Positions 4,231 through 47,970 of a stretch of DNA of 64,000 bases are shown here, piece by piece. Source of the DNA: a bacterium (GTDB lineage: Bacteria; Myxococcota_A; Bradymonadia; Bradymonadales; Bradymonadaceae). The notes beneath the pieces were generated by a model. The model was not told the origin of the DNA and did no database searches. It saw only the letters and a list, made by a program, of their open reading frames with translations. Position 1 is the stretch's first letter; the number at the start of each line of letters is the position of its first letter. A program made the translations under genes and the position numbers. The DNA lies in the NCBI GenBank assembly GCA_030427705.1, contig JAUIBR010000002.1, forward strand, positions 92,631 to 156,630, in the 5' to 3' direction.

Positions 4231-5616
4231 TTGAGTTTCTCGAGGTTTTTCTGCACGATCGGCGCTCGACGCGGAGGTTCCATATTGCGGTTGTGGTTGG
4301 TTTTAGTTTTAGTCTTCTCGATTGGGTGTTCAGAACCCGAGAGAGACGTCGATGATGTTGCCGATCTCGGGAGGGATGGGGCCAACGAAATGGACGACTC
4401 TCCTGACACTCCTGAAATCGCGGAACGCCCTGACATTGTTGAATGCCGACCAGTCGCATCCAAACCAACCGGCGACTTGAGCGTCGACCTCGTAGGCGAC
4501 TGGGTTTTCAACCTGGGGCTGATCGACAGTCTTCAGCCAGTCTATCGACTCCAACCAAATGGTGAAATGAAAGTGGTTTTGTCGCCGCACGACGGCTTCT
4601 CAGAAAGCCCCCGCGACGGACGAATCAATATGGGTTCGTGGCAGACTTCTGGCGGCTTCCTAAAAGCTGGTCATTTCCGACAAGAAGTCCTTCATGTGTG
4701 GCCGACAATGATTCAACTCGACCAAAACAACATGCTTCGAGTCGAGTGTACGGGGTTCGGATTCAATGACACATTCGAACGCGATGAGGCCGTCTGCTCG
4801 ACAGCATGTACTGAAATGGCTGAAGGGGCGCTCTGCATACCAAGCCCTTTGCCTCACGGACGCGCATCTGGTTGCGGGTTGCCTGACCTTGTTCAACCAC
4901 GTCGCATTCAAGGCTTGGATTTTGGATTTCAAACTGTTGCGTATGCCGGGAACCAATGGTGTGGGCTCAAGACGACCGGAGAAGTGGCCTGTGAAAATGA
5001 TAGCTACATCCCTAGCGGGGAGTTTGTTCAGATGACGGCCGGCCACGAATTCTATTGCGCGATCGATATCAGAGGTGAGGTGACATGTTGGAATCCAAGC
5101 CGTGATTTGCGCACACCGTCGATTGAATTCAAGGACATCAAGGCCAACTTCGCCCAGGCATGTGGTGTCGACTCGGAAGGAGACGTTTATTGCTGGTATC
5201 CGGGAACCCCTGACAACCAGCCTGGCGACCCGATCCTGACTGGCGACTTCGAGCGGGTGTTCATGGGCGATGGCAACTTATGCGCTCTCGACAATGACGG
5301 AGTGCTGACATGCATCGGCCCGGACGCCCCACAAATTGCTGGCGTGTACAAGAGCGCGGCCGTGAAATCCGGCGCGGTTTGCGCTATTGACGCAGCCAAT
5401 AACGTCTCCTGCGTCGGCAGTGACACGGATGATGTGCCTCAAACGGCCCAGTTGCTTGCGTTCCAAGATGACGGGGGATGCGCATTGTCGCCAGAAAACG
5501 TGCTGACGTGTTGGGGACCTTACCCGTTCACCGCCGAAAACGTGACGCAGTTTTCAACGATGCTCAACAATGGGGTTTGTGGGATCATCTCCAACAACGT
5601 CCTAGTTTGTTGGTGA
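4231..5616 (+). CDS. Lipoprotein with Cys/Trp-containing beta-propeller-like repeats (RCC1-like?)
   Basis: TTG start at 4231; an alternative TTG at 4285 gives MRLWLVLVLVFSIGC. The lipobox is FSIGC. Repeats of the form G(E/D)V.C(W)..(P/G) occur about seven times. Confidence 0.45.
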   Translation: MSFSRFFCTIGARRGGSILRLWLVLVLVFSIGCSEPERDVDDVADLGRDGANEMDDSPDTPEIAERPDIVECRPVASKPTGDLSVDLVGDWVFNLGLIDSLQPVYRLQPNGEMKVVLSPHDGFSESPRDGRINMGSWQTSGGFLKAGHFRQEVLHVWPTMIQLDQNNMLRVECTGFGFNDTFERDEAVCSTACTEMAEGALCIPSPLPHGRASGCGLPDLVQPRRIQGLDFGFQTVAYAGNQWCGLKTTGEVACENDSYIPSGEFVQMTAGHEFYCAIDIRGEVTCWNPSRDLRTPSIEFKDIKANFAQACGVDSEGDVYCWYPGTPDNQPGDPILTGDFERVFMGDGNLCALDNDGVLTCIGPDAPQIAGVYKSAAVKSGAVCAIDAANNVSCVGSDTDDVPQTAQLLAFQDDGGCALSPENVLTCWGPYPFTAENVTQFSTMLNNGVCGIISNNVLVCW

Positions 5617-32385: not shown

Positions 32386-33732
32386 ATGGTCCGACTGAAA
32401 AGAGGATGGATCCTCATCGTGCTGGCCCTGTTCGTACTCTCGCTCGGCTGCGACGGAGCCGACTTCGATGAAGACGGAATCCCGGACACCAAAGACAATT
32501 GTCCACAAATAAAGAATCCCGACCAAAGTGATGCGGACGGCGATGACCACGGCGATGTTTGCGACATTTGTCCGAACGACAGCGACCCGCGTCAGGAAGA
32601 TGAGGACGATGACGGTGCCGGCGATGCCTGTGACAATTGCTTGGGTTTGGCAAACGCCGACCAGAGTGATGTCGACAGCGACGGGCTCGGCGATGCCTGC
32701 GACCCCGATATCGACAACGACGGACTTGAGAACGACGTAGACAACTGCCCATCGGATGCAAATCCAGGCCAAGAAGATGGCGATTCTGATGGCGCGGGTG
32801 ACGTATGTGATGTTTGCCCTGAGCTGTCCAATCCTGGTCAGGAAGACGCCGATGAAGATGGTCGCGGCGATATCTGCGATATCTGTCCGGACAACTTCGA
32901 TCCGAATCAGGAAGATACGGACGAAGACGGGCCAGGTGATGCGTGCGATGTCTGCCCGTTCATGGCGAACCCGGAGCAAGAGGACGAAGACTCGGATGGG
33001 CGAGGCGATATCTGCGACAACTGCCCCCAGACGCCAAACTCTGACCAACGCGATGAAGACCTCGATGGCGAAGGTGATGTGTGCGACTCCGACATCGACG
33101 GTGATGAAATCCCGAATGTGCGCGATAACTGCCCCGTCGTTGCCAACCCCAACCAGGGAGACAGCGATGGCGATGATGTGGGAACAGCCTGCGACAACTG
33201 TCCAACGGTCGTAAACACATCCCAGCTAGATAGCGATGTCGATGGGTTAGGCGACGAATGCGACAACTGCCCTGAGGCCGCCAATGCCAACCAGATGGAC
33301 GTGGACGGTGACGACGTGGGCGATGTCTGCGACCCATGTCCGATGATGGCGAACATGAGCTCGGTCGACACCGATGGCGATGGCGTGCCCGACGAATGCG
33401 ACAATTGCCCTCGCGTCCAAAGCGAAGACCAAACTGACACCGATGGCGATGGATTCGGCGACGCATGCGATAACTGCACATACGTCATGAACCCGCAGCA
33501 GCTGGACTCCGACAACGACATCATTGGCGACAGCTGCGACAACTGCCCGATGAACCCCAACACGGACCAAAAAGACACTGACCAGAACGGAATCGGTGAC
33601 GTCTGTGACTGCATGGGCCCCGATCAAGACGGTGACGGGCATCCGGATATGTGCGACAATTGCGCTTCCATCTTCAATCCGGACCAGCTGGACCAGAACC
33701 AGAACGGGATTGGCGATATTTGTGAGGTGTAG
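32386..33732 (+). CDS. Lipoprotein built almost entirely of thrombospondin type-3 (calcium-binding) repeats
   Basis: Lipobox LSLGCDG. More than 20 copies of D.D.DG.GD.CDNCP.. N(P/A)DQ.D. Confidence 0.75.
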
Positions 33733-33735
33733 TCG

Positions 33736-34185
33736 ATGGAAATAAGCGCTCGCACAATGTACGGACTCAGGGCGTTGGTCACGATGGCAGGTGCCCGGAC
33801 CAAAGACCCTATGAGCATCCAGACAATCGCCGAGCGCGAAGGCCTTCCATCGAAGTTCCTTGAAGGCATCATGGCCGACCTCAAACGTGGTGGCTTCGTT
33901 CGAAGCCGACGTGGTGCCAGTGGTGGATACCTCCTGAACAAGCCCGCCAGCGAAATCACAATCCTAGATATCATTCGTCATCTTGACGGACCGGTCGCCC
34001 CGGCCCGATTTGAGGACCGAACCTCTGGCGAAGACATGACGGAGCGGCAGAAGGCGTTCACGCCTGTATGGACCGAAGTTCGCGATGCACAGATTCGAGT
34101 GCTTGAGACCTACACAATTCAATCCATCGCCGACTCTGTCCCTGAGGACCCTCTTGGCGAATTCCACCCGATTTATCAGATCTGA
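33736..34185 (+). CDS. Rrf2-family transcriptional regulator (Cys-free, so cluster-less)
   Basis: N-terminal wHTH RTMYGLRALVTMA ... SIQTIAEREGLP ... ASGGYLL. There is no Cys in the whole protein. Confidence 0.78.
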   Translation: MEISARTMYGLRALVTMAGARTKDPMSIQTIAEREGLPSKFLEGIMADLKRGGFVRSRRGASGGYLLNKPASEITILDIIRHLDGPVAPARFEDRTSGEDMTERQKAFTPVWTEVRDAQIRVLETYTIQSIADSVPEDPLGEFHPIYQI

Positions 34186-34194
34186 GGCTGCGCG

Positions 34195-35046
34195 ATGACG
34201 ACACCTAAAATGGCCGTTCCCATTGTGGAAGCTACGTTTGGACTTGATGGTGGCGCGATGTTCGGCATCGTCCCTCGCCCGCTCTGGGAGCGTTCAAACC
34301 CGGCTGATGACAATAATCGGATCGACCTTGCGACGCGTTGTCTCTACGTCGAGTACGACGATGGCATGCGTGTCCTCGTAGACGTCGGAATCGGCACGAA
34401 ATGGTCCGAGAAAGAGCGTGGAATCTACAAGATCGACAATCAGGACTCAGGCCTTACCAAGGCGCTGAAAGAGCAGTTTAACTGCACGCCCGACGATATC
34501 GACCATGTCGTCCTGACCCATCTTCACTTTGATCACGCGGGCGGATTGAGCCGTTGGTCGGACGATACCGGTGCCTCGGAAGCCGTGTTCAACAACGCTC
34601 ATCACTGGGTACAGCGCCGCAACTGGGCTTGGGCTCACGCGCCGAGTGCTCGGGATGGTGGCAGTTACCGAAACGAAGATTTTGGTTTCCTGGCGGGATT
34701 GGATGCGCCGGATATGACGCATGTCGATGGAATCGACGAGATTCTGCCTGGAATCGAGGTCATCCCCTGCCACGGCCACACTTTTGGCATGCAGCTGGTC
34801 AAAGTGACGACTCCTGATGGGATCTACGTGCACTGTGCCGACTTGATCCCCACCGCGTCTCATCTGAAGGACGCGTATGTGATGGGATACGACCTGCAAC
34901 CGTTGGAAACGGTCAAAGAGAAACGTGCCCTCCTCTATGAAGCGATGCGCCACGATTGGATTCTGGTCTTCGAGCACGATCCAAACATGGCATGTGCCCG
35001 TGTCGAAGCCGACAAGCGTGGCCGCCCAGTCGCCGTCCCCGTCTAA
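34195..35046 (+). CDS. MBL-fold metallo-hydrolase
   Basis: HVVLTHLHFDHAGG (HxHxDH motif), plus downstream His and Asp ligands. Confidence 0.75.
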   Translation: MTTPKMAVPIVEATFGLDGGAMFGIVPRPLWERSNPADDNNRIDLATRCLYVEYDDGMRVLVDVGIGTKWSEKERGIYKIDNQDSGLTKALKEQFNCTPDDIDHVVLTHLHFDHAGGLSRWSDDTGASEAVFNNAHHWVQRRNWAWAHAPSARDGGSYRNEDFGFLAGLDAPDMTHVDGIDEILPGIEVIPCHGHTFGMQLVKVTTPDGIYVHCADLIPTASHLKDAYVMGYDLQPLETVKEKRALLYEAMRHDWILVFEHDPNMACARVEADKRGRPVAVPV

Positions 35047-40357: not shown

Positions 40358-41356
40358 TTGCTGAATTGGAATGACATTCAAGGTCAGGACCGCGCCAAGA
40401 AGGTGTTGGAGTCCTCGGTAGAATCGGGTCGCATCCACCATGCATACCTGATGGTCGGACCTCTTGGCGTTGGGAAACGCGCTACTGCTTTGGCGCTGGC
40501 GGCGGCACTAAACTGCACTGGAAACTCAGGAAGCGGATTTCAACCTGCATGCGGCCAGTGCCCGAGCTGCCGCAAAGTCGAGGGGATGCAACATCCCGAT
40601 ATCCGCGTGATTGAAGCGGAAGGTCGCTCAATCAAAATCGATCAGGTCCGCAGCGTTCAAAAAGCAGCGGCCACACGACCCTATGAGGGTGATTATCAGG
40701 TCATCATCATCGATGACTGTCACAAGATGACGGAAGAGGCGGCCAACGCGCTGTTGAAGACCCTCGAAGAGCCACCGGAATCGATGAAGCTCCTGTTGAT
40801 TTCGCACCAGCCAGCATCATTGCTCGACACGATTCGGTCCCGATGCCAGCTGCTTCGCTTCGCCCCGCTCTCATCGTCAATTGTGTCTTCGATTCTCTCG
40901 CACGAACTTTCAGATATGGCCCCCGACCAATTGCAGGTGGCCGCGGGGTACGGCGAGGGGTCTGTTGGACGAGCAAAAGACCTGGCCGAGTCCGGCCTGA
41001 TTGCGGAACGTGCTGAGTTGATTCGGACGATCCTGAATACCGATGCCAAGCACACCGCCACGCTTAGCACCGCCGCAGAAAGTCTCTCGAAAGACCGGTC
41101 GTTGTTTGGGACGAAGCTTGAAATCCTGAAGGTGTTCTTGCGAGATGTCGCACTGTTGCAGGCGGTTCCAGACCACCCTGAGCGCATTATCAATCAGGAC
41201 CTTTCCGAGCTCGCGCAGACTTGGGGTCGCGAAGTATCGGCCGATGATGTATTGAACCGCATCAATCTGGTCTCACGCGCCCAGCATCTGTTGGAGCGCA
41301 ATGTGAACCCGATGATGATTGCTGAAGACCTACTCATGGATCTCGCACGTAGATGA
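40358..41356 (+). CDS. holB: DNA polymerase III delta' subunit
   Basis: HAYLMVGPLGVGKRATA. Zinc module CGQCPSCRK. DDCHKM is a degenerate Walker B. The start is uncertain: TTG at 40358, or the track ORF start at 40259. Confidence 0.72.
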   Translation: MLNWNDIQGQDRAKKVLESSVESGRIHHAYLMVGPLGVGKRATALALAAALNCTGNSGSGFQPACGQCPSCRKVEGMQHPDIRVIEAEGRSIKIDQVRSVQKAAATRPYEGDYQVIIIDDCHKMTEEAANALLKTLEEPPESMKLLLISHQPASLLDTIRSRCQLLRFAPLSSSIVSSILSHELSDMAPDQLQVAAGYGEGSVGRAKDLAESGLIAERAELIRTILNTDAKHTATLSTAAESLSKDRSLFGTKLEILKVFLRDVALLQAVPDHPERIINQDLSELAQTWGREVSADDVLNRINLVSRAQHLLERNVNPMMIAEDLLMDLARR

Positions 41357-42660
41357 GCGCTGAACCACAAATCGAGCTGTCGGGCGCACCGTTTAAGGGC
41401 AAACGCCGACTCTATAACGTCGTACCTGTTCAACTTCGAACAAACTTCATCAAGGTGGAGTACGACGCGGGATCGCTCTTGGTGCATCCAGGCGACCAGC
41501 TGATCGTGGAGACCGACAAAGGTCCGGTGATTGGCAAGGTGACGGGCCAGGTTACCCGAAAGGTCCTCAAAGCAAACTCTCTGCAGCGCGTCGTCCGCAA
41601 AGCGTCCGAACAGGACATCGAACGCGCCGATAAGAACGAAGAGCTTGAAGTCGAGGCACATCACTTCGCGGTTCAACGGATTCGCGAACGAGCGCTGCCT
41701 ATGAAGCTCATTCGCGCCCAGTACATGCAAGATGGGTCGCGTATCGTCTTCTACTTTAGCGCGGACGGACGCATCGACTTCCGGGACCTCGTAAAGGACT
41801 TGGCGCACCGATTCCGTACCCGCATCGAGATGCACCAGATCGGCGTGCGAGACGGCACAAGGATGATTGGTGGGATCGGCCCGTGCGGTCGCGAGTTGTG
41901 CTGCAGCACGTTCCTTGAGAACTTCGCGCCTGTCTCGATTCGCATGGCGAAAGACCAGGGGCTGACGCTCAATCCAGCCAAAGTGTCCGGCATGTGTGGG
42001 CGATTGATGTGTTGTCTGGTTTATGAGCAACAGGTCTATCGACGGATGCGCAAGCGCCTTCCGCGAGCAGGTCAGCGCGTTGAGACCCCGGACGGTCTAG
42101 GCAAAGTCCTGGAGCTCGATGTCATTAACCAACGTGTCATCGTGGAACTCGAAGACACCAACCGTCGTACGTATGAGAATGCGGATGTGATGCTCCACGA
42201 CCCCAAACGTGGGCAGACGCCAAAGGCGGAAGAGCCGCCGTCTGACTACCTCTGGGACGATCTCGACCCGAAGAAGTCTGACGACGAATCGAAGGGCAAA
42301 AAGCGGCGCAGACGCCGGCGCGGTGGCAAATCCAAGGGCAGCGACGGTCAGAACCAGCAGTCGAACCAGACGCAGAGCTCGGACAACAACTTAGACAAGC
42401 CCAAGAAATCACGTAATCGGCGGCGGCGGCGCGGAGGCAAGGGATCCGGCAATAAGTCCGAGGGGCAGGGTCAGGGTCAGAACCAAAAGAACGACAACGC
42501 CAAGAAGGACTCCAAGCAGGGCGACAGCGCCAAGAAATCGGGGTCTCGACGACGGCGACGCGGCCGCGGCAAGGGCAAAGGCGGCTCAAACCAAGGCGGA
42601 TCCGATAACGGCGGGTCCGGCAAAGGCGGCTCAGATAAGGGCGGCTCAAAGAAAGAATAG
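41353..42660 (+). CDS. PSP1/RicT (YaaT)-family protein with a long basic Gly/Lys/Arg-rich C-terminal tail
   Basis: Conserved PSP1 C-terminal domain. Sits directly 3' of holB, which is the same synteny as Bacillus holB-yaaT. Tail is KKRRRRRRGGKSKGSDGQNQQ...GGSKKE. Confidence 0.72.
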   Translation: MSAEPQIELSGAPFKGKRRLYNVVPVQLRTNFIKVEYDAGSLLVHPGDQLIVETDKGPVIGKVTGQVTRKVLKANSLQRVVRKASEQDIERADKNEELEVEAHHFAVQRIRERALPMKLIRAQYMQDGSRIVFYFSADGRIDFRDLVKDLAHRFRTRIEMHQIGVRDGTRMIGGIGPCGRELCCSTFLENFAPVSIRMAKDQGLTLNPAKVSGMCGRLMCCLVYEQQVYRRMRKRLPRAGQRVETPDGLGKVLELDVINQRVIVELEDTNRRTYENADVMLHDPKRGQTPKAEEPPSDYLWDDLDPKKSDDESKGKKRRRRRRGGKSKGSDGQNQQSNQTQSSDNNLDKPKKSRNRRRRRGGKGSGNKSEGQGQGQNQKNDNAKKDSKQGDSAKKSGSRRRRRGRGKGKGGSNQGGSDNGGSGKGGSDKGGSKKE

Positions 42661-42771
42661 ACCTTCCCGAGCCCCCGAGCCTCATTGGAGGGCCTCCCCG
42701 TCTCCCCTCCCAGATTTCCTTTTTGGACCGAAACTCAAGAGTTTGTTAGCTTCGGGGCCGAGGAGGACAAC

Positions 42772-44571
42772 ATGCGAATATTCGGGGTTTTAACCTTACT
42801 TGTGGTGGTGGCTTGGTCTGCGCCCGCGGTTGCTCAAGAAGCAAAGGACGGCAAAGCGCAGGTGAAAAAGAAGGCTCCACCCGTGCCGAAAGAGATTGAG
42901 GCGGACTGGAAGTACCTAAACAGCCAAGCTGTTAAGGTCCAACGGGCCTCAAAGAAGTACGCGCAGCGCATCGAAGTGGAGACCTCCGTCGACGAGGTGG
43001 TCCGCAAGATCGGAAAGTCCAGCCCTCCAAGCAAAGCATGGAAGTGGGTGCGGGACAATATCGGCTATGAGCCCTACGGCGGCCTACTGCGTGGCGCACG
43101 CGGCGCTCTACTCGCCCGAAAGGCGAATGCCGTGGACCAGGCAGCCCTCCTCTCGGAAATCTACGTCGCGCAAGGACACTCGGTTCGATTTGTGAGCGGC
43201 GATATTTATGCGAAGGACGCCCAGACGCTGCTCGCCGAAATCAACGGCAGCGCGACACTGATCTCGCCTCAGGCCGCGGTCGGAAAAGACTTCACGAAGA
43301 CCAGCTATGTCGCCGCCGACCAACTTCGCTATCAACAGCCCGTCACTCAACATGTTTGGGTGGAAGTAAAATACAAAGGCCAGTGGATGACCGCCGATCC
43401 GGTGTTCGCGACACGATTTGGCGCGACGTTGGGCAAAGGGACGGATGTTCGCGAGAAACTGCTCGACGAGCTTGGCGGCACCATCCGGATTCGAGTCCGG
43501 GCCCGCCTCAAAGACGACCAAGATAAAGAGTTGGTCTCGGTATTCGGTCGAATCGACAAATTCAGCTATCAGAACATCGCGTTGGAGTTCGAGCAGAGCC
43601 CGATGCTGAAAGGCCAGTTGCAGCCTGTTCTGTCTGTCGCAGGGCAATCCAAGAAAGGTGAAGTCTTTCCGGTCAAAGAACTGGATTGGCTCCGCGTTGA
43701 GTTTGCGGTTCGCCGCGGGCGAATCGAAGACCGTTTTGCAGAAACGCTCTACAAGGACGGCGAGCCAAACTCCATATTTGATTACGACCAAACGTACTGG
43801 GGCATCGCGCTTCTGCCCGGCTGGGTGCCGCCTGATTTCTTGAGAATCACCACAGCTCGTTACGTCGGTGCAAGCTCACAAGCCCTCGCAGACTTCACGA
43901 AAAACGCCGCGGGCGGTGGTACGACCGCGAACTTTGACATGGCCTTGAACGAAACCCACCGGCCTTACGCATTCTTGATTTCGTCCATGTATGCAACGCA
44001 TTTGGACCGTCTGACGCGTGAGCTCGCGTACTCGATGGGTGTGACGCCGATTCTGCACGAACCGCGTGTCATCATGACTGGTATCCTGCGCAAAGACGAC
44101 AGCTACGACTACCGGATTAGCGCTCGCGGAAACGCCCTGGAAGCCATGCCGAAGCTCGGTGTTCCCGCGGCTGCGGCATCGGGATTCCTTTCCGTCCATG
44201 GGCGTATGGCGCACCAGCTTGAGGCCGAGCTGCTTCATAACCTCTCGGGAAGTAAAGTCATCAGTGTTGACCGTTTGTTTGTGCACGCAGCCAAGACAAA
44301 GAAGCGCGTGACGACGATCCATCAGAAGAATCTGAGTAAGGCGCGGCGCCTGGGTTTGTCGAAAGAAGTTCGAGGCGCGTTGGAGAATCAGGTGCGCAAT
44401 CGCGGTGCTGTGGTGCTGACCCCAAGTGGCCCGGTAGACCTCGATGGCGGAAAGCGCGCGGGTTGGTGGGCATTGAATCCGACGACCGGAAACGTCGAAG
44501 GCTCACTGGGTGAGCGAATGTTGAGCACAATAGCGCGAAAGACGGGGCGGACGATGCAGACACGTTGGTGA
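42772..44571 (+). CDS. Secreted transglutaminase-like-fold protein lacking the catalytic Cys (predicted pseudo-enzyme)
   Basis: Strong SD aggagga upstream. Signal peptide MRIFGVLTLLVVVAWSAPAVAQ. TGase-core-like GHSVRFVSG plus HVWVEV plus ADPV. Cys is replaced by Ala/Asn at the expected position. Confidence 0.45.
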   Translation: MRIFGVLTLLVVVAWSAPAVAQEAKDGKAQVKKKAPPVPKEIEADWKYLNSQAVKVQRASKKYAQRIEVETSVDEVVRKIGKSSPPSKAWKWVRDNIGYEPYGGLLRGARGALLARKANAVDQAALLSEIYVAQGHSVRFVSGDIYAKDAQTLLAEINGSATLISPQAAVGKDFTKTSYVAADQLRYQQPVTQHVWVEVKYKGQWMTADPVFATRFGATLGKGTDVREKLLDELGGTIRIRVRARLKDDQDKELVSVFGRIDKFSYQNIALEFEQSPMLKGQLQPVLSVAGQSKKGEVFPVKELDWLRVEFAVRRGRIEDRFAETLYKDGEPNSIFDYDQTYWGIALLPGWVPPDFLRITTARYVGASSQALADFTKNAAGGGTTANFDMALNETHRPYAFLISSMYATHLDRLTRELAYSMGVTPILHEPRVIMTGILRKDDSYDYRISARGNALEAMPKLGVPAAAASGFLSVHGRMAHQLEAELLHNLSGSKVISVDRLFVHAAKTKKRVTTIHQKNLSKARRLGLSKEVRGALENQVRNRGAVVLTPSGPVDLDGGKRAGWWALNPTTGNVEGSLGERMLSTIARKTGRTMQTRW

Positions 44572-44966
44572 CATCGGCACTCAAGTCCGGCGCCATTATT
44601 CTGGCGATGGTCGACTCAACCGCCAAAACGTCCGAGGAGTACGTGCCCGTGGTGTGTAAGGCCCAAAAGAGTGTTCAACGTCTGAGTACTGCGTGGTGTG
44701 CGACAAAAAAGGCGATTTCAGCGCCGAAGCTCAGTGGCTGTTTTGAGCCCCCTGATCTCGCCTTCAACGAGCAGAAGTTGCTTAATCGACAATCGTGCGA
44801 AGCCCGCACGAAAGAAGCCCGTTGTGGCATCACCGTGGCCTCTGCACTGATGGATGGACGGTTGACCGCTCTCTACACGCAAGCCGCCAAAATCGAGATG
44901 AAAGACGCCGACAAAGAAGGACGTTCTAGAGGGTGGCAACCCCCTACAGGCTTGACCTGCAACTGA
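44565..44966 (+). CDS. Hypothetical Cys-rich small protein (uncertain ORF)
   Basis: TTG start overlapping the upstream stop. Six Cys. No recognisable motif. Confidence 0.2.
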   Translation: MVTSALKSGAIILAMVDSTAKTSEEYVPVVCKAQKSVQRLSTAWCATKKAISAPKLSGCFEPPDLAFNEQKLLNRQSCEARTKEARCGITVASALMDGRLTALYTQAAKIEMKDADKEGRSRGWQPPTGLTCN

Positions 44967-44979
44967 CTTCACTATCACA

Positions 44980-45915
44980 ATGGTGGACAACCCAAGGAAC
45001 TCGCCCATGTCGTACGACATCCATGACCTGAAGATCGGCGAGCTACCTGCCGAACTTCCAAAGGTTGAGGGGCTCGACGAGCTAATCGGAAACACGCCGA
45101 TGCTGCGCCTTTCGCGCCATGGGAGCGAAGATAACCCTGTCTACGTAAAGCTAGAAAACACCAACCCTAGCGGCTCGATCCGTGACCGATACATCGCCGA
45201 GATTCTAGGCCGTGCGCGGCGTGCGGGGCAGATTGTGGCGGGCGATACCATTGTACTCGCGGGGATCAATGATTCGGCGGTGTCTGCAGCGTGCATCGGC
45301 TCGATTCTTCGGATGAACACACAGGTGTTTGCCCCGTTGGACACCTCGACGCGGTTGGTCCCGATCATCGAGCGTTATGGCGGTGTGGTGACGATTAGCG
45401 ACGATGACCACCCTCTTGATGATTGCGTTCAACACGCTGCCAAGTGGGCACGGGAGTCGGTAGACCGCATGTACGTTGACGGCTATCGCCGTTCCGCTGT
45501 TCGCGATTCCTACCAGGGCATCGGGACGGAGATTCTGTCCGCGCTCAAAGGAATACCGCTTGGGGGCTTTGTCACGTCTGTGACAACCGGGGCGACATTT
45601 CGTGAGGTGTCGCGTGTGTTGCGGCGAACGAATCCGCATCTTGAGGTGCGCGGCGTGCGCATTATCGAAAACGAATTCGCGACCGCTGAAGAGAACCCGT
45701 TCATCGGCCAGATCGCGCTCCAAGACATTTGGGAGTTTCGAGACGAGATCGCCAGAACCGAAGGCCTGCTGCTGGGCCCCAAAGGCGTCGCATGCGTGAA
45801 ACGTGCGGTCGAATTGGCGGCGGAGCTTCCACCGGGTCAAGCGGTGGTTGCGCTGAATCCGGACTCGGGGCAGCGCTACCTTGGCTGGGAAAACAAACCT
45901 CTGTTCAGGACATAG
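44980..45915 (+). CDS. Cysteine synthase-like fold-type-II PLP-enzyme paralog with the Schiff-base Lys replaced by Arg (NPSGSIRDR). Likely non-catalytic.
   Basis: Aligns to the CysK/CysM N-terminal motif E..NP.GS(V/I)KDR but reads ENTNPSGSIRDRYIA. The Gly-loop is degenerate (TTGATF instead of GTGGT). Confidence 0.6.
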   Translation: MVDNPRNSPMSYDIHDLKIGELPAELPKVEGLDELIGNTPMLRLSRHGSEDNPVYVKLENTNPSGSIRDRYIAEILGRARRAGQIVAGDTIVLAGINDSAVSAACIGSILRMNTQVFAPLDTSTRLVPIIERYGGVVTISDDDHPLDDCVQHAAKWARESVDRMYVDGYRRSAVRDSYQGIGTEILSALKGIPLGGFVTSVTTGATFREVSRVLRRTNPHLEVRGVRIIENEFATAEENPFIGQIALQDIWEFRDEIARTEGLLLGPKGVACVKRAVELAAELPPGQAVVALNPDSGQRYLGWENKPLFRT

Positions 45916-45917
45916 CG

Positions 45918-46847
45918 ATGCCTACGTTTCCCGTTACAGATGAGTTTGCTGCCGTCCACCCTGCCCGTCGCGTGGACTCTTTGCTTGAGCTGGTTGGAAA
46001 CACACCACTGGTACGACTTCGGCACGTGACTGAGGATCTACCGAAGTCAGTGGAGATTTGGGCGAAACTTGAGTTCATGAATCCGGGTGGCTCCATCAAA
46101 GACCGCACAGCCCGTCAGATCATCATCGACGCAATGAAAGACGGCGTGCTGCAACCAGGGCAGACACTCATCGACGCAACTACCGGAAACACCGGTGTGG
46201 CTTACGCGATGTTGGGTGCAGCATTGGGAATCGAGGTTGAGCTCGTGATGCCGGAGGGAGCTTTGGAGGCTCGCCGAAACTTAGTCACCGCGTATGGCGC
46301 GAAAGTGACCTATTGCGACGGCGATGACGACTGCGCCATCGAGCATGTGCAGACGATCGTTGAGGCAAACCCAGACCGTTACTTCTACGCGAATCAGTAC
46401 TCGAACCCGTCAAATCCAAAGGCCCATGAGTTAACCACTGGCCCCGAAATCTGGCGGCAAACCGGGGGTCGAGTCACGCATTTCATCGCGGCGACCGGCA
46501 CATCCGGCACCATCATGGGCACCAGCCGAGGGCTCAAGGCGCAAAACGCACAAATCAAGGTCATTGGCTGCCAACCATCCGAGGGCAGCCATAACCTGGA
46601 AGGCCTCAAGAACATGGCGTCAGGCCTGACCCCAGGAATCTTCAACGAAGAAGAGCTCGACGAGATGATATTTGTCGATTGCGACGACGGCATTGGGATG
46701 GCCACGAAGCTCGCAAATGAAGAAGGCATCGCAGCCGGAAACTCCGCGGGTGCCAACGTCCATGCAGCCTTGGAGCTTGCGAAAACCCTGGATGAGGGCG
46801 TTATCGTCACCATCATCTGCGACCATGCCGACCGCTACCTGGGATGA
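45918..46847 (+). CDS. cysM: Cysteine synthase (CysK/CysM family, intact active site)
   Basis: NPGGSIKDR, TTGNTGVAYA and GTSGTIMG are present. Confidence 0.82.
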   Translation: MPTFPVTDEFAAVHPARRVDSLLELVGNTPLVRLRHVTEDLPKSVEIWAKLEFMNPGGSIKDRTARQIIIDAMKDGVLQPGQTLIDATTGNTGVAYAMLGAALGIEVELVMPEGALEARRNLVTAYGAKVTYCDGDDDCAIEHVQTIVEANPDRYFYANQYSNPSNPKAHELTTGPEIWRQTGGRVTHFIAATGTSGTIMGTSRGLKAQNAQIKVIGCQPSEGSHNLEGLKNMASGLTPGIFNEEELDEMIFVDCDDGIGMATKLANEEGIAAGNSAGANVHAALELAKTLDEGVIVTIICDHADRYLG

Positions 46848-47257
46848 CACCGACCTGGTTCGCTGCCAATTGGCCTCAAATCAAGAGTTGGGTGGAATCA
46901 CAGTATCCGCACGAAGGGTGCGGACTTGTTACCGAGCGTGGCCGCTGGATCGCGTGCGATAACACAGCAGATTCCCCACGAACGTCGTATGTGATCGACC
47001 CGATGCGTGTCCTGGAGCTTGAGACGACGGGCGAGGCGCTTTGTGTCATCGTGCATAGCCATGTCGACGCCGACGCGTACTTCAGCGACGAAGACATCGC
47101 TGGAGCGACGTTTCCCGGCACGAAGTCCCCAGCGTTCCCGGGCGTCGACTACCTGGTGGTTTCGGTCAAACACAAGAAAGCCGACCAAGCAAAGCTGTTT
47201 CGCTTTGCAGAGGTCGGCGAATTCGAATGTGTCTTCGAGTTTGATTTTCTGAACTAG
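46844..47257 (+). CDS. JAMM/MPN+ metalloprotease (Mec+-like)
   Basis: E(GCGL) ... HSHVDADAYFSDED matches the JAMM motif HxHx7Sx2D. Overlaps the cysM stop (ATGA). Confidence 0.7.
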   Translation: MTPTWFAANWPQIKSWVESQYPHEGCGLVTERGRWIACDNTADSPRTSYVIDPMRVLELETTGEALCVIVHSHVDADAYFSDEDIAGATFPGTKSPAFPGVDYLVVSVKHKKADQAKLFRFAEVGEFECVFEFDFLN

Positions 47258-47970
47258 AACTCTGCGGAACCGCCGGGTTCAAGCGCGACAACTTCCGTTG
47301 GGACATCGAGGGACGACAACTCAGCTTTGAGTTGGGCCGGTGTGCCGGTTAGCAGGCCAAAGGTACCGAAGTGAGCAGGGATGACCTTCTTGACGCCGGT
47401 AAGCTGACAGGCCCACGCAGCAGCCTTGGGGTCCATCGTGAAATGGTCGCCAATGGGGAGGATTGCAACGTTTGGCTCGTGCAATCGTGCGATCCACTCC
47501 ATGTCACCGAACAGCGCGGTGTCGCCGGCCACATAGAACGAATTGCCGTCATCAAATTTCACGACGAAGCCCGCCGGTTCGCCCAAGTAGACAACGGTTC
47601 CGTCCTCTTCGGTGAAGGACGAGGAGTGCCGCGCTTCGACCATCGTGACGGAGATACCGATATCGTCCAATCGAACCGTTCCGCCAATATTCATGCCGAC
47701 CAAGCGGTCGCCATCAACGCCTTTGCTGCCAACCCAAGAGGTCAAATCGAAGATGCCGACGATTGGGCCGCTCGTGCGCTCGGCGGTGTCGAACAGATTT
47801 CCGATGTGGTCGCCGTGCCCATGAGTCACCAAGATCGCATCAGGCGCTACATCATGGAATTGTTCGGGACACGAAGGGTTGCCGGACAACCACGGGTCTA
47901 CCAAGACGGACTTTCCGCCGGACTCGAACAAAAATGTACCGTGACCTAACCAAGTGACTTTTGTGCTCAT
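47254..47970 (-). CDS. UPF0173-family metal-dependent hydrolase (MBL fold)
   Basis: MSTKVTWLGHGTFLFESGGKSVLVDP ... HGHGDH. Confidence 0.78.
   Translation of the reverse strand: MSTKVTWLGHGTFLFESGGKSVLVDPWLSGNPSCPEQFHDVAPDAILVTHGHGDHIGNLFDTAERTSGPIVGIFDLTSWVGSKGVDGDRLVGMNIGGTVRLDDIGISVTMVEARHSSSFTEEDGTVVYLGEPAGFVVKFDDGNSFYVAGDTALFGDMEWIARLHEPNVAILPIGDHFTMDPKAAAWACQLTGVKKVIPAHFGTFGLLTGTPAQLKAELSSLDVPTEVVALEPGGSAEF

Follow-up and report, generated by a model that had tools for sequence, protein, structure and literature searches.

Organization of the locus

The window, by which we mean the whole stretch of DNA analysed, comprises 64,000 nt of a Bradymonadaceae MAG (GCA_030427705.1, contig JAUIBR010000002.1, 92,631-156,630, forward strand), and every sequence feature named in the initial annotation of this DNA was found where that annotation had placed it. 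Three genes on the plus strand make up the locus. Gene 1 (44980-45915, 311 aa) encodes a putative CysK-fold pseudoenzyme and forms the core that is conserved across the locus family; alignment to the CysK structures 9jxu and 8srt places Arg68 (codon CGT, 45181-45183), within the motif NPSGSIRDR, where the lysine that forms the Schiff base with PLP would sit. An alternative start proposed by a gene caller lies at M10 (45007). Gene 2 (45918-46847) encodes a PLP-dependent sulfhydrylase of the CysM type whose catalytic core is intact; its ORF extends over 45729-46847, the real start being the ATG at 45918, two bases past the gene 1 stop. Gene 3 (46844-47257) encodes a JAMM/MPN+ metallopeptidase of short form (Prok-JAB, 8e-10), whose start codon shares an ATGA with the stop codon of gene 2, in agreement with the JAMM protease and the overlap first described. 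The gene 1 stop (TAG), a 2-nt spacer and the gene 2 ATG occupy positions 45913-45920 of the plus strand, the site where relatives carry cysO. An assembly error at this junction was considered and rejected, since an independently made Logan assembly (L013) reads exactly the same there.

Upstream on the plus strand lies a transglutaminase-like gene (42685-44966), in which a frameshift near 44524-44535 leaves two ORFs, the first of 628 aa and the second, Cys-rich, of 133 aa (44565-44966). The gene is unsplit in six related loci (L002, L008, L010, L016, L030 and L031), where a single ORF of about 700 aa ends in the same Cys-rich domain; the 133-aa ORF, initially left unexplained, is the frameshifted C-terminal domain of this gene. 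The transglutaminase-like gene is a conserved operon neighbour, separate from the cysteine genes. A gap of just 14 bp lies between gene 1 and the ORF that precedes it, and the window has no rrf2 gene adjoining gene 1. On the other side, a UPF0173-type metal-dependent hydrolase of the MBL fold (47254-47970, minus strand; NCBIfam NF001911, 252.7 bits) converges on gene 3, whereas in the closest relatives it immediately precedes gene 1 and shares its strand, which indicates that the cys segment is inverted in the window.

Gene 1 encodes a CysK-fold protein without the PLP lysine

Gene 1 had been read as CysK-like with its lysine changed to Arg, and this was confirmed by the CGT codon of residue 68; in the phosphate loop, GTGGT has become TTGAT. 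The Pfam PALP match (3e-32) is partial, covering residues 34-227 only, and the scores against the NCBIfam cysK/cysM models (103-111 bits) are far below the cut-offs of 344-394 bits. In the AF2 model (pLDDT 78.7) the two-domain fold-type-II CysK fold is present, and CysK/CysM structures match it at TM 0.7-0.75 with E values of about 1e-20, the values for the CysK fold being 0.73-0.75.

Every canonical PLP contact tested is changed in gene 1. In the alignment to CysK structures, the substrate carboxylate loop TSGNTG is replaced by GINDSA, Gln142/145 by Gly168, Asn71 by Asp, and Ser272, which bonds the PLP N1 atom in CysK, by Lys268; GINDSA, Gly168, Lys268 and TTGAT are all conserved within the family. 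The former active site is lined by the invariant charged residues R68, D98, R170 and K268, a phosphate-loop remnant, SVTTG(A/G)T, is semi-conserved, and hydrophobic channel residues are kept, with L146, V150 and Y169 aligning with M124, I128 and F146 of SaCysK. A ThiS-like domain fused to gene 1 was sought and rejected, as the C-terminus (...NPDSGQRYL) aligns with the normal CysK C-terminal segment.

Orthologs keep the Arg, a point raised by the initial annotation: it occupies the PLP-lysine position in 120 of the 120 best gene 1 matches and in all motif-bearing family representatives above 125 bits, distant ones included, and is retained in homologs down to 33% identity. Ordinary Lys-bearing CysKs appear in the same search only at about 100 bits and below, and a short Arg-bearing fragment (107 bits) and one Tyr variant are found near 100 bits. 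The codon CGT is two base changes away from a Lys codon and the Arg is family-wide, which led us to reject a sequencing error. The family numbers roughly 600 members, and its alignment contains 41 invariant columns. Judged from its sequence, gene 1 is an ancestral CysK-fold protein devoid of the catalytic lysine and of the canonical PLP and substrate contacts; it is under strong purifying selection in every locus variant, is predicted to be catalytically dead and probably holds no PLP. In the literature searched, no relevant report was found of a bacterial CysK pseudoenzyme or of a CysK paralog lacking the lysine.

cysO is absent from the window and present in related operons

No ThiS/MoaD-like ORF had been apparent in the locus, and the same proved true of the whole 64 kb. 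The window contained no plausible ORF ending in GG; CysO sequences of five Bradymonadales, used as tblastn queries, reached a best E value of about 0.5 and located no CysO, and approximate sequences of M. tuberculosis CysO and of E. coli ThiS and MoaD found nothing either. A profile HMM built from the CysO of five relatives reached a best E value of 2.1 against the six-frame segments of at least 25 aa, and the earlier suggestion that a cysO shorter than 60 aa had been overlooked was not upheld for the window.

In 16 related loci (13 complete and 3 cut by a contig end), cysO lies between the orthologs of gene 1 and gene 2, in the order [rrf2]-cysK(K→R)-cysO-cysM-JAMM. Among them are that of the cultured Bradymonas sediminis and L028, whose gene 1 family member is only 33% identical. 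The cysO-encoding segment that relatives carry at the site of the gene 1/gene 2 junction measures 350-450 bp. The encoded proteins are of the ThiS family, 91-93 aa long, and end in AIAGG or, in L002, L007 and L008, in AIAGG followed by two residues; their best match among solved structures is M. tuberculosis CysO (3dwg_C, 1.3e-21), which bears out the original assignment of the locus to the Mec+/CysO/CysM kind. A search of the window and of the fetched loci with an approximate E. coli MoeB probe gave no match to a ThiF/MoeB-like E1.

We regard the window locus as very probably a derived, CysO-less remnant of this Bradymonadales operon. Because both proteins coexist in the 16 related loci, the comparison indicates that the missing cysO is a lineage-specific loss and the dead CysK an ancestral extra component, and the proposal that the dead CysK substitutes for CysO fails. 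cysO is absent from the operon and from the 64-kb window, we infer its absence from the whole genome, and a true loss of CysO function in this genome is likely.

Gene 2 and gene 3 keep their catalytic sites and lack cysO-linked motifs

Gene 2, recognized from the start as an intact cysteine synthase by its NPGGSIKDR motif, is CysM-type, with its catalytic motifs in place (K61 in NPGGSIKDR, TTGNTG, GTSGT and GNSAG). Scoring 335.7 bits for cysM and 326 bits for cysKM, it just misses the respective curated cut-offs (394 and 344). The best PDB match is E. coli CysM (2bht, 240 bits), with M. tuberculosis CysM at 185 bits, and the C-terminal extension of the latter is lacking. Also lacking are the motifs SDPMEGSDGA, FHGLEGLKHMP and GWDMAE, all invariant in cysO-linked orthologs. 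The Lys of GLKNM in gene 2 aligns with Arg220 in ALRNM of an approximate M. tuberculosis CysM sequence, an alignment hint on the use of O-phosphoserine and CysO thiocarboxylate. With its catalytic core kept, this CysM would most likely now work as an ordinary sulfide-dependent sulfhydrylase.

The zinc motif of gene 3 is likewise intact, consisting of E24 and HSHVDADAYFSDED, which fits HxHx7Sx2D (H71-S-H-x7-S-x2-D84, encoded at 47054-47095). The protein has no 'KYHxxDPExYPRT' insert, which is present in every cysO-linked ortholog. A kept zinc site, the loss of the cysO-linked insert and fast evolution together suggest that the JAMM protein may be either in the course of being repurposed or decaying.

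Gene 1 is the constant member of an eroding operon

Counting the full operon, four architectures were found. cysO alone is lost in the window and in L010 (gene 1-cysM-JAMM), cysO and cysM are lost in L016 and L030-32 (gene 1-JAMM), and cysO and JAMM are lost in L021 and L025 (gene 1-cysM'). Gene 1 is the sole constant and the best-conserved member of these variants. When invariant columns were defined from 12 cysO-containing loci, the window had changes at 4 of 49 in gene 1, the corresponding counts being 18 of 123 for gene 2 and 8 of 35 for gene 3, and at matched gene 1 distance the gene 2 and gene 3 products of the window diverge more than those of almost every pair of cysO-containing loci. 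Within the cysO-less clade, gene 1 proteins are 61-95% identical and JAMM proteins 25-58%. These sequence comparisons place the window in a clade whose operon is eroding. The number of independent cysO losses is uncertain, as the cysO-containing locus L001 falls inside the cysO-less clade in an NJ tree.

Where cysO and cysM are gone, gene 1 overlaps the JAMM gene by 4-40 nt. The four overlapping two-gene loci raised the possibility that gene 1 and JAMM form an obligate pair, which was rejected given that L021 and L025 keep gene 1 without JAMM and that the evolutionary rates of the two are decoupled. The persistence of gene 1 without CysM and without JAMM also weakens the initially suggested CysM/CysK-like heterodimer or carrier-docking role.

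Rrf2 regulators with Tyr-x-Ile tails accompany gene 1

A CymR-like Rrf2 regulator ('type B'; 33736-34185, plus strand), free of Cys and with the tail ...PIYQI, is encoded 10.8 kb upstream of gene 1. CymR is its best specific (equivalog) NCBIfam model, at 101 bits and under the cut-off of 195, and its PDB matches are to CymR (2y75 and 3t8r). All of its homologs (120/120) have Ile as last residue and Tyr, or rarely Phe, at -2, and 86 of the 120 contain no Cys; the 12 Rrf2 proteins near related operons show the same ending without exception. The type B gene adjoins the operon in Bradymonas-type relatives. In 8 related loci an rrf2 gene with the orientation of gene 1 lies just before it, overlapping or abutting it, and the gene 1-adjacent proteins carry the tail ...F(V/T/I)YVI in 8 of 8 cases. 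Gene 1 and homologs of the window-type Rrf2 share a contig in at least 7 cases, as judged from contigs of matching length. An operator-like palindrome, CGAGT-N5-ACTCG, precedes the rrf2 genes that lie directly before gene 1 in relatives (type A) and has no match in the window; scanning 42.6-47.4 kb for promoters and terminators yielded nothing beyond chance expectation.

In S. aureus, CysK binds the C-terminal ...YMFYI peptide of CymR in its active site, and all partners of CysK have Ile as their last residue (bioRxiv 10.1101/2024.09.19.614015; PMC5562914). The Tyr-x-Ile tail of the Rrf2 proteins is a known signature for docking into CysK; docking to gene 1 is predicted from sequence, with the window Rrf2 as candidate partner. 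As in the CymR-CysK pair of Bacillus subtilis and Staphylococcus aureus, an Rrf2 protein that lacks cysteine ligands for an Fe-S cluster and whose aromatic-rich tail has a terminal Ile (YMFYI in CymR, FVYVI and PIYQI in Bradymonadales) is paired with a CysK-fold protein and connected to cysteine-metabolism genes, here by genomic linkage. Unlike gene 1, the Firmicutes partner is an active CysK, and O-acetylserine turnover at PLP breaks the complex. The candidate partner here has a rebuilt pocket without the catalytic lysine, so that signal sensing, if any, would have to be non-covalent, and the window Rrf2 gene is distant from it.

Interpretation and alternatives

On balance, we lean towards a CysO-less operon remnant in which gene 1 acts as a sensor or regulator. 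The ancestral operon encodes a protein-thiocarboxylate route to cysteine, as in M. tuberculosis: CysM adds activated serine to CysO-COSH, and the JAMM peptidase frees cysteine and trims CysO where the two-residue extension is present. In the lineage of the window, cysO has been cleanly deleted from the operon. Gene 1, which we take to be a non-catalytic receptor or sensor, may bind CymR-like Rrf2 repressors by their C-terminal Tyr-x-Ile tail, in the way that Firmicutes CysK does with CymR, and such binding might couple a sulfur or cysteine-status signal to transcription. A receptor role would explain why gene 1 outlives the CysO/CysM/JAMM pathway. That gene 1 regulates by binding Rrf2 tails is nonetheless a tentative assignment. 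The loop that in active CysK contacts the terminal carboxylate of the partner is replaced (TSGNTG by GINDSA, Gln145 by Gly) and gene 1 probably lacks the PLP on which the Ile packs, so tail binding would need a remodelled pocket. The window has no rrf2 abutting gene 1 and no type A palindrome, and the 'cysteine synthase A' annotated separately in B. sediminis (supplement of PMC7460792) could be the real partner of the tails. More doubtful still is that gene 1 founds an undescribed bacterial family of dedicated non-catalytic CysK-fold receptors for these tails, whose Arg/Lys-lined former PLP pocket would bind Rrf2 tails and perhaps a phosphorylated or sulfur metabolite too. Gene 1 would then be a bacterial counterpart of CYSL-1, the 'enzyme turned pure sensor' form of the CymR-CysK switch.

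The pathway could instead be intact, with cysO relocated and the carrier, possibly a MoaD or ThiS paralog, acting in trans. All catalytic residues are kept in gene 2 and gene 3, no E1 was found in the operon of any relative, so trans-acting parts are normal for the system, and the contig, at least 255 kb long, extends beyond the 64 kb of the window, such that a cysO or ThiS/MoaD gene elsewhere could serve CysM and JAMM. We consider this unlikely, since it is exactly the cysO-less loci that have lost the JAMM insert and the motifs of surface and loops, all invariant in 12 of 12 cysO-linked operons, and since sister lineages lose cysM or JAMM outright, a pattern that fits relaxation after cysO loss better than relocation.

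For gene 1 itself, a structural role, either as a 'prozyme'-type heterodimer partner of CysM or as an adaptor holding CysO or CysO-Cys for JAMM, would agree with its place always upstream in the same operon as CysM and/or JAMM, with the 4-40-nt overlaps noted above and with the resemblance of the adduct tail (...GG-Cys) to the C-terminal peptides bound by CysK-type clefts. It sits poorly with a gene kept and highly conserved without CysM (L016, L030-32), without JAMM (L021, L025) and without CysO, at a rate decoupled from those of CysM and JAMM (gene 1 proteins are 75-95% identical where JAMM proteins are 25-58%), and we judge it improbable. A low probability also attaches to gene 1 still being an enzyme of new chemistry, either PLP-independent or with non-covalently held PLP or another phosphorylated ligand. 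The invariant charged residues, the SVTTG(A/G)T remnant and the strong purifying selection argue that the pocket is not the product of random decay; against this stands the alteration of all canonical PLP contacts tested (Lys→Arg, Asn71→Asp, Ser272→Lys, GTGGT→TTGAT). For fold-type-II catalysis without the lysine, we know of no precedent and our literature search found none. That the Arg arose by a sequencing error, or that gene 1 is a pseudogene in decay, has negligible probability: nothing beyond the altered motifs speaks for it, and it conflicts with a codon two changes from Lys, with Arg in homologs down to 33% identity, with the 41 invariant columns and with the concordant L013 assembly.

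Comparison with known systems

The favoured reading, an operon remnant with gene 1 as sensor or regulator, has its closest parallel in mec-cysO-cysM of M. tuberculosis (Rv1334-1336). Shared features are a CysM-type sulfhydrylase followed by a JAMM gene in one operon and a CysO ortholog in the operon of the relatives. M. tuberculosis encodes its E1 outside the operon, and the MoeB probe matched no E1 in the window or the relatives' loci. The window differs in lacking cysO, the gene order is not the same, the CysM of the window is closer to the E. coli enzyme, and some Bradymonadales CysO proteins, unlike that of M. tuberculosis, carry two residues after GG. The dead CysK-fold gene heading the Bradymonadales operon is an addition to the M. 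tuberculosis operon and to the ThiS-JAB-cysteine-synthase operon types described by Iyer, Burroughs and Aravind 2006 (PMC1779556), where it is not mentioned. In a predatory Myxococcota order, the CysO/CysM/Mec+ route to cysteine, which is familiar chiefly from M. tuberculosis, is standard, with a fourth, previously undescribed and apparently catalytically dead CysK-fold component, and is visibly dismantled gene by gene within one clade.

C. elegans CYSL-1 keeps the PLP lysine. It is a CysK homolog turned signalling receptor for the C-terminal Ile tail of EGL-9 (PMC5562914), and gene 1 is predicted to resemble it as a tail receptor without a biosynthetic role; the CYSL-1 system differs in being eukaryotic, with a prolyl hydroxylase as partner and no operon context. 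Should gene 1 be a tail-binding sensor, the moonlighting CysK-CymR interaction would have become the sole function of a duplicated enzyme. The system would be experimentally easy, with B. sediminis cultured, small proteins and partner tails that are simple peptides, and it would let one study partner recognition by the CysK-fold cleft without PLP. As a mere pathway helper, gene 1 would be of modest interest.

In the HcyS/HcyD/HcyF/MetY system of Wolinella and the QbsCDE system of Pseudomonas, a JAMM protein trims C-terminal extensions of a ThiS-like carrier. Those operons encode an E1, make homocysteine or thioquinolobactin and are not known to include a dead PLP paralog. The same kind of trimming would fit the CysO proteins of L002, L007 and L008, with their two residues beyond GG.

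A conserved CysK pseudoenzyme in the cysteine-synthase locus

The first gene of the locus (gene 1, 44980-45915, + strand) matched Pfam PALP over residues 34-227 only (3e-32) and scored 103-111 bits against the NCBIfam cysK and cysM models, whose cut-offs are 344-394 bits. Its motif reads NPSGSIRDR, with Arg68 at the PLP-lysine position encoded by CGT (45181-45183), which would need two substitutions to become a Lys codon. This Lys-to-Arg exchange, noticed in the initial annotation, is conserved in orthologs, with Arg in all of the 120 best homologs (47-100% identity). Searched exhaustively, 1.8 billion representatives yielded only about 10 clusters above 1e-30, every motif-containing one of them with Arg; near 100 bits, most hits were CysK and CysM proteins of the usual kind that carry Lys. 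The family occurs in Bradymonadales and near relatives in the Myxococcota.

Alignment to CysK structures revealed that the canonical contacts are all replaced in gene 1 (TSGNTG by GINDSA, Gln by Gly168, GTGGT by TTGAT and the PLP-N1-bonding Ser by Lys268), and the replacement residues are invariant or nearly so family-wide. The family has 41 invariant columns, including R68, D98, R170, P267-K268-G269 and NPDxGxxYxGWE. The predicted structure comprises a complete CysK fold (pLDDT 78.7; TM 0.73-0.75 to S. aureus CysK). The family-wide Arg, the conserved replacements and the complete predicted fold show gene 1 to be, as far as catalysis goes, a conserved pseudoenzyme and not a decaying gene.

The ancestral operon contains a CysO-like protein

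Gene 2 (+ strand) starts with ATG at 45918, two bases past the TAG stop of gene 1, a junction identical in an independent assembly, and carries NPGGSIKDR (335.7 bits against cysM); the closest solved structure was E. coli CysM (240 bits), with M. tuberculosis CysM at 185 bits. Gene 3 (46844-47257, + strand), in ATGA overlap with gene 2, encodes a JAMM peptidase (Prok-JAB, 8e-10) with E24 and HSHx7Sx2D. The Lys-to-Arg CysK-like protein, the CysM with an intact motif and the JAMM protein are thus present as originally described. A small cysO, previously suspected to have been overlooked, was not found: a GG-terminus scan detected no ThiS/MoaD-like gene in the operon or the 64-kb window, and neither tblastn of the window with the relatives' CysO (best E about 0.5) nor a CysO profile HMM run over every six-frame segment (best E 2.1) revealed one.

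In relatives (13 complete loci and 3 partial ones, including those of cultured Bradymonas sediminis and of L028, whose family member is only 33% identical to gene 1), the orthologs of gene 1 and gene 2 are separated by 350-450 bp, and this stretch codes for a protein of 91-93 aa. The protein is annotated as Pfam ThiS, and along its whole length its best match among solved structures is M. tuberculosis CysO (3dwg_C, 1.3e-21). Its C-terminus is AIAGG, with RA, VT or RQ added in some relatives. From the position of this ThiS-family gene in the 16 loci, the deduced ancestral operon is cysK*(K→R)-cysO-cysM-JAMM. Because CysO and the dead CysK coexist in these operons, the latter cannot be the stand-in for CysO that was proposed earlier; the assignment to a CysO/CysM/Mec+-type pathway was right in kind, given the M. 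tuberculosis CysO-like gene of the relatives. The locus is a CysO/CysM/JAMM operon that includes a dead CysK from its ancestral form, and in the window it is CysO-less and partly relaxed.

The two residues beyond Gly-Gly occur in the CysO of L002 (8926-9204), L007 (7500-7778) and L008 (9002-9280). In such operons the carrier would need trimming by the JAMM protein ahead of its activation, as is done by HcyD and QbsD. No E1-like gene was detected in the window or in any compared locus with an approximate E. coli MoeB query. Operons of ThiS, JAB and cysteine synthase were catalogued in 2006 without a second, inactive synthase (PMC1779556), which the Bradymonadales operon adds. Bradymonabacteria reportedly lack SerC, SerB and the de novo route to vitamin B6 (PMC7460792), which makes the O-phosphoserine supply for an M. 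tuberculosis-style CysM uncertain.

Erosion of the operon around the window

The loci nearest to the window display several reduced architectures, namely gene 1-cysM-JAMM (window and L010), overlapping gene 1-JAMM only (L016, L030, L031/L032) and gene 1-cysM' only (L021, L025). The L010 CysM (4296-5171) still has the PLP lysine, but mutation has changed the substrate loop from TSGNTG to AQGNMA and the phosphate loop from GTSGT to QTAGS, and about 20 aa are deleted; this protein may be on the way to becoming a second pseudoenzyme. Reduced loci group together in a neighbour-joining tree (L025, with too short a fragment of gene 1, was left out); because the cysO-containing L001 is nested among them, the count of independent cysO losses is uncertain.

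At columns invariant in 12 cysO-containing operons, the window differs at 4 of the 49 in gene 1, at 18 of the 123 in gene 2 (with changes clustered in SDPMEGSDGA, FHGLEGLKHMP and GWDMAE) and at 8 of the 35 in gene 3. An insert, KYHxxDPExYPRT, found in every cysO-linked JAMM and in none of the cysO-less clade, is deleted in gene 3. At matched gene 1 distance, mean identity between cysO-containing pairs was 66% for gene 2 and 58% for gene 3, versus 58-61% and 41-48% for the window. Within the cysO-less clade, identity was 61-95% for gene 1 versus 25-58% for JAMM, whose zinc ligands are always retained. From the erosion series and the gene 2 and gene 3 changes we infer, from a window of 64 kb of the genome, that CysO was functionally lost in this lineage and not merely relocated. 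CysM and JAMM would then have been relaxed or repurposed, and gene 1 presumably still performs some role independent of both.

Rrf2 regulators and a possible role of gene 1

Eight loci carry an Rrf2-family gene immediately before gene 1 and in the same orientation, which either overlaps gene 1 or is separated from it by no more than about 50 nt. A second, more conserved kind adjoins the operon in Bradymonas-type genomes. Its window representative (33736-34185) has CymR as top specific (equivalog) NCBIfam model (101 bits, below cut-off) and matches CymR structures. Tyr-x-Ile forms the C-terminus of all 12 operon-neighbouring Rrf2 proteins (as ...F(V/T/I)YVI or ...PIYQI), and among 120 database homologs of the window's Rrf2 the C-terminal residue is always Ile, 116 have a P-x-Y-Q-I tail and 86 lack cysteine.

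A C-terminal Ile is common to all known CysK partners (bioRxiv 10.1101/2024.09.19.614015). [quoted passage not shown] By alignment, the hydrophobic channel of S. aureus CysK is preserved in gene 1 (L146, V150 and Y169 for M124, I128 and F146). Together with the Rrf2 linkage, the Ile tails and the CymR likeness, this leads to our preferred mechanistic proposal, held at less than even odds, that gene 1 might act like CYSL-1, as a non-catalytic receptor or sensor for Rrf2 Tyr-x-Ile tails. Against it, the carboxylate-binding loop is rebuilt in gene 1 and PLP is probably absent; in the window, gene 1 has no adjoining Rrf2 gene, and the operator-like palindrome of relatives (described below) is lacking; moreover, a further cysteine synthase A is annotated in B. 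sediminis (PMC7460792) and could be the true partner of the tails.

An imperfect operator-like palindrome (consensus about ATTGTCGAGT-N5-ACTCGGG) lies 40-90 bp upstream of the gene 1-preceding rrf2 in six loci (L001, L002, L007, L008, L019, L020), where its overlap with a promoter-like TTGAC...-10 region suggests autoregulation by the adjacent Rrf2. The window had no match with up to three mismatches allowed.

The CymR-like gene sits in a tight same-strand three-gene cluster (32386-35046) with genes for an MtsC-like thrombospondin-repeat MYXO-CTERM protein (356 bits) and a YtnP-like MBL lactonase (188 bits, below cut-off). This trio immediately adjoins the cys operon, in mixed orientations, in B. 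sediminis and relatives.

Genomic neighbourhood and segment inversion

The 133-aa Cys-rich ORF (44565-44966), initially unexplained, aligns with the C-terminal domain of a transglutaminase-like protein, from which it has been split off. In L002, L008, L010, L016, L030 and L031 this protein is encoded by one uninterrupted ORF (about 700 aa), and its conserved C-terminal domain contains multiple Cys and finishes with ...GLTC-K/N. The window's gene (42685-44966) is split by a frameshift near 44524-44535, resembling an 8-nt 'agcacaat' insertion; either this is a genuine pseudogene or the assembly is wrong here. The closest relatives have the order abhydrolase (+), MBL (+), gene 1 (+) ... transglutaminase (-), and the cys segment (44980-47257) is inverted in the window versus L010, L016, L030 and L031. 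Both ends of the segment are packed extremely closely here: gene 1 is 14 bp from the upstream ORF, and the JAMM and MBL-hydrolase stop codons overlap convergently by 4 nt (47254-47257). The last 130 or so residues of a PSP1-domain protein (41353-42660) form a tail in which Lys, Arg, Gly, Ser and Gln are extremely abundant, for example in RRRRRRGGKSKG repeats.
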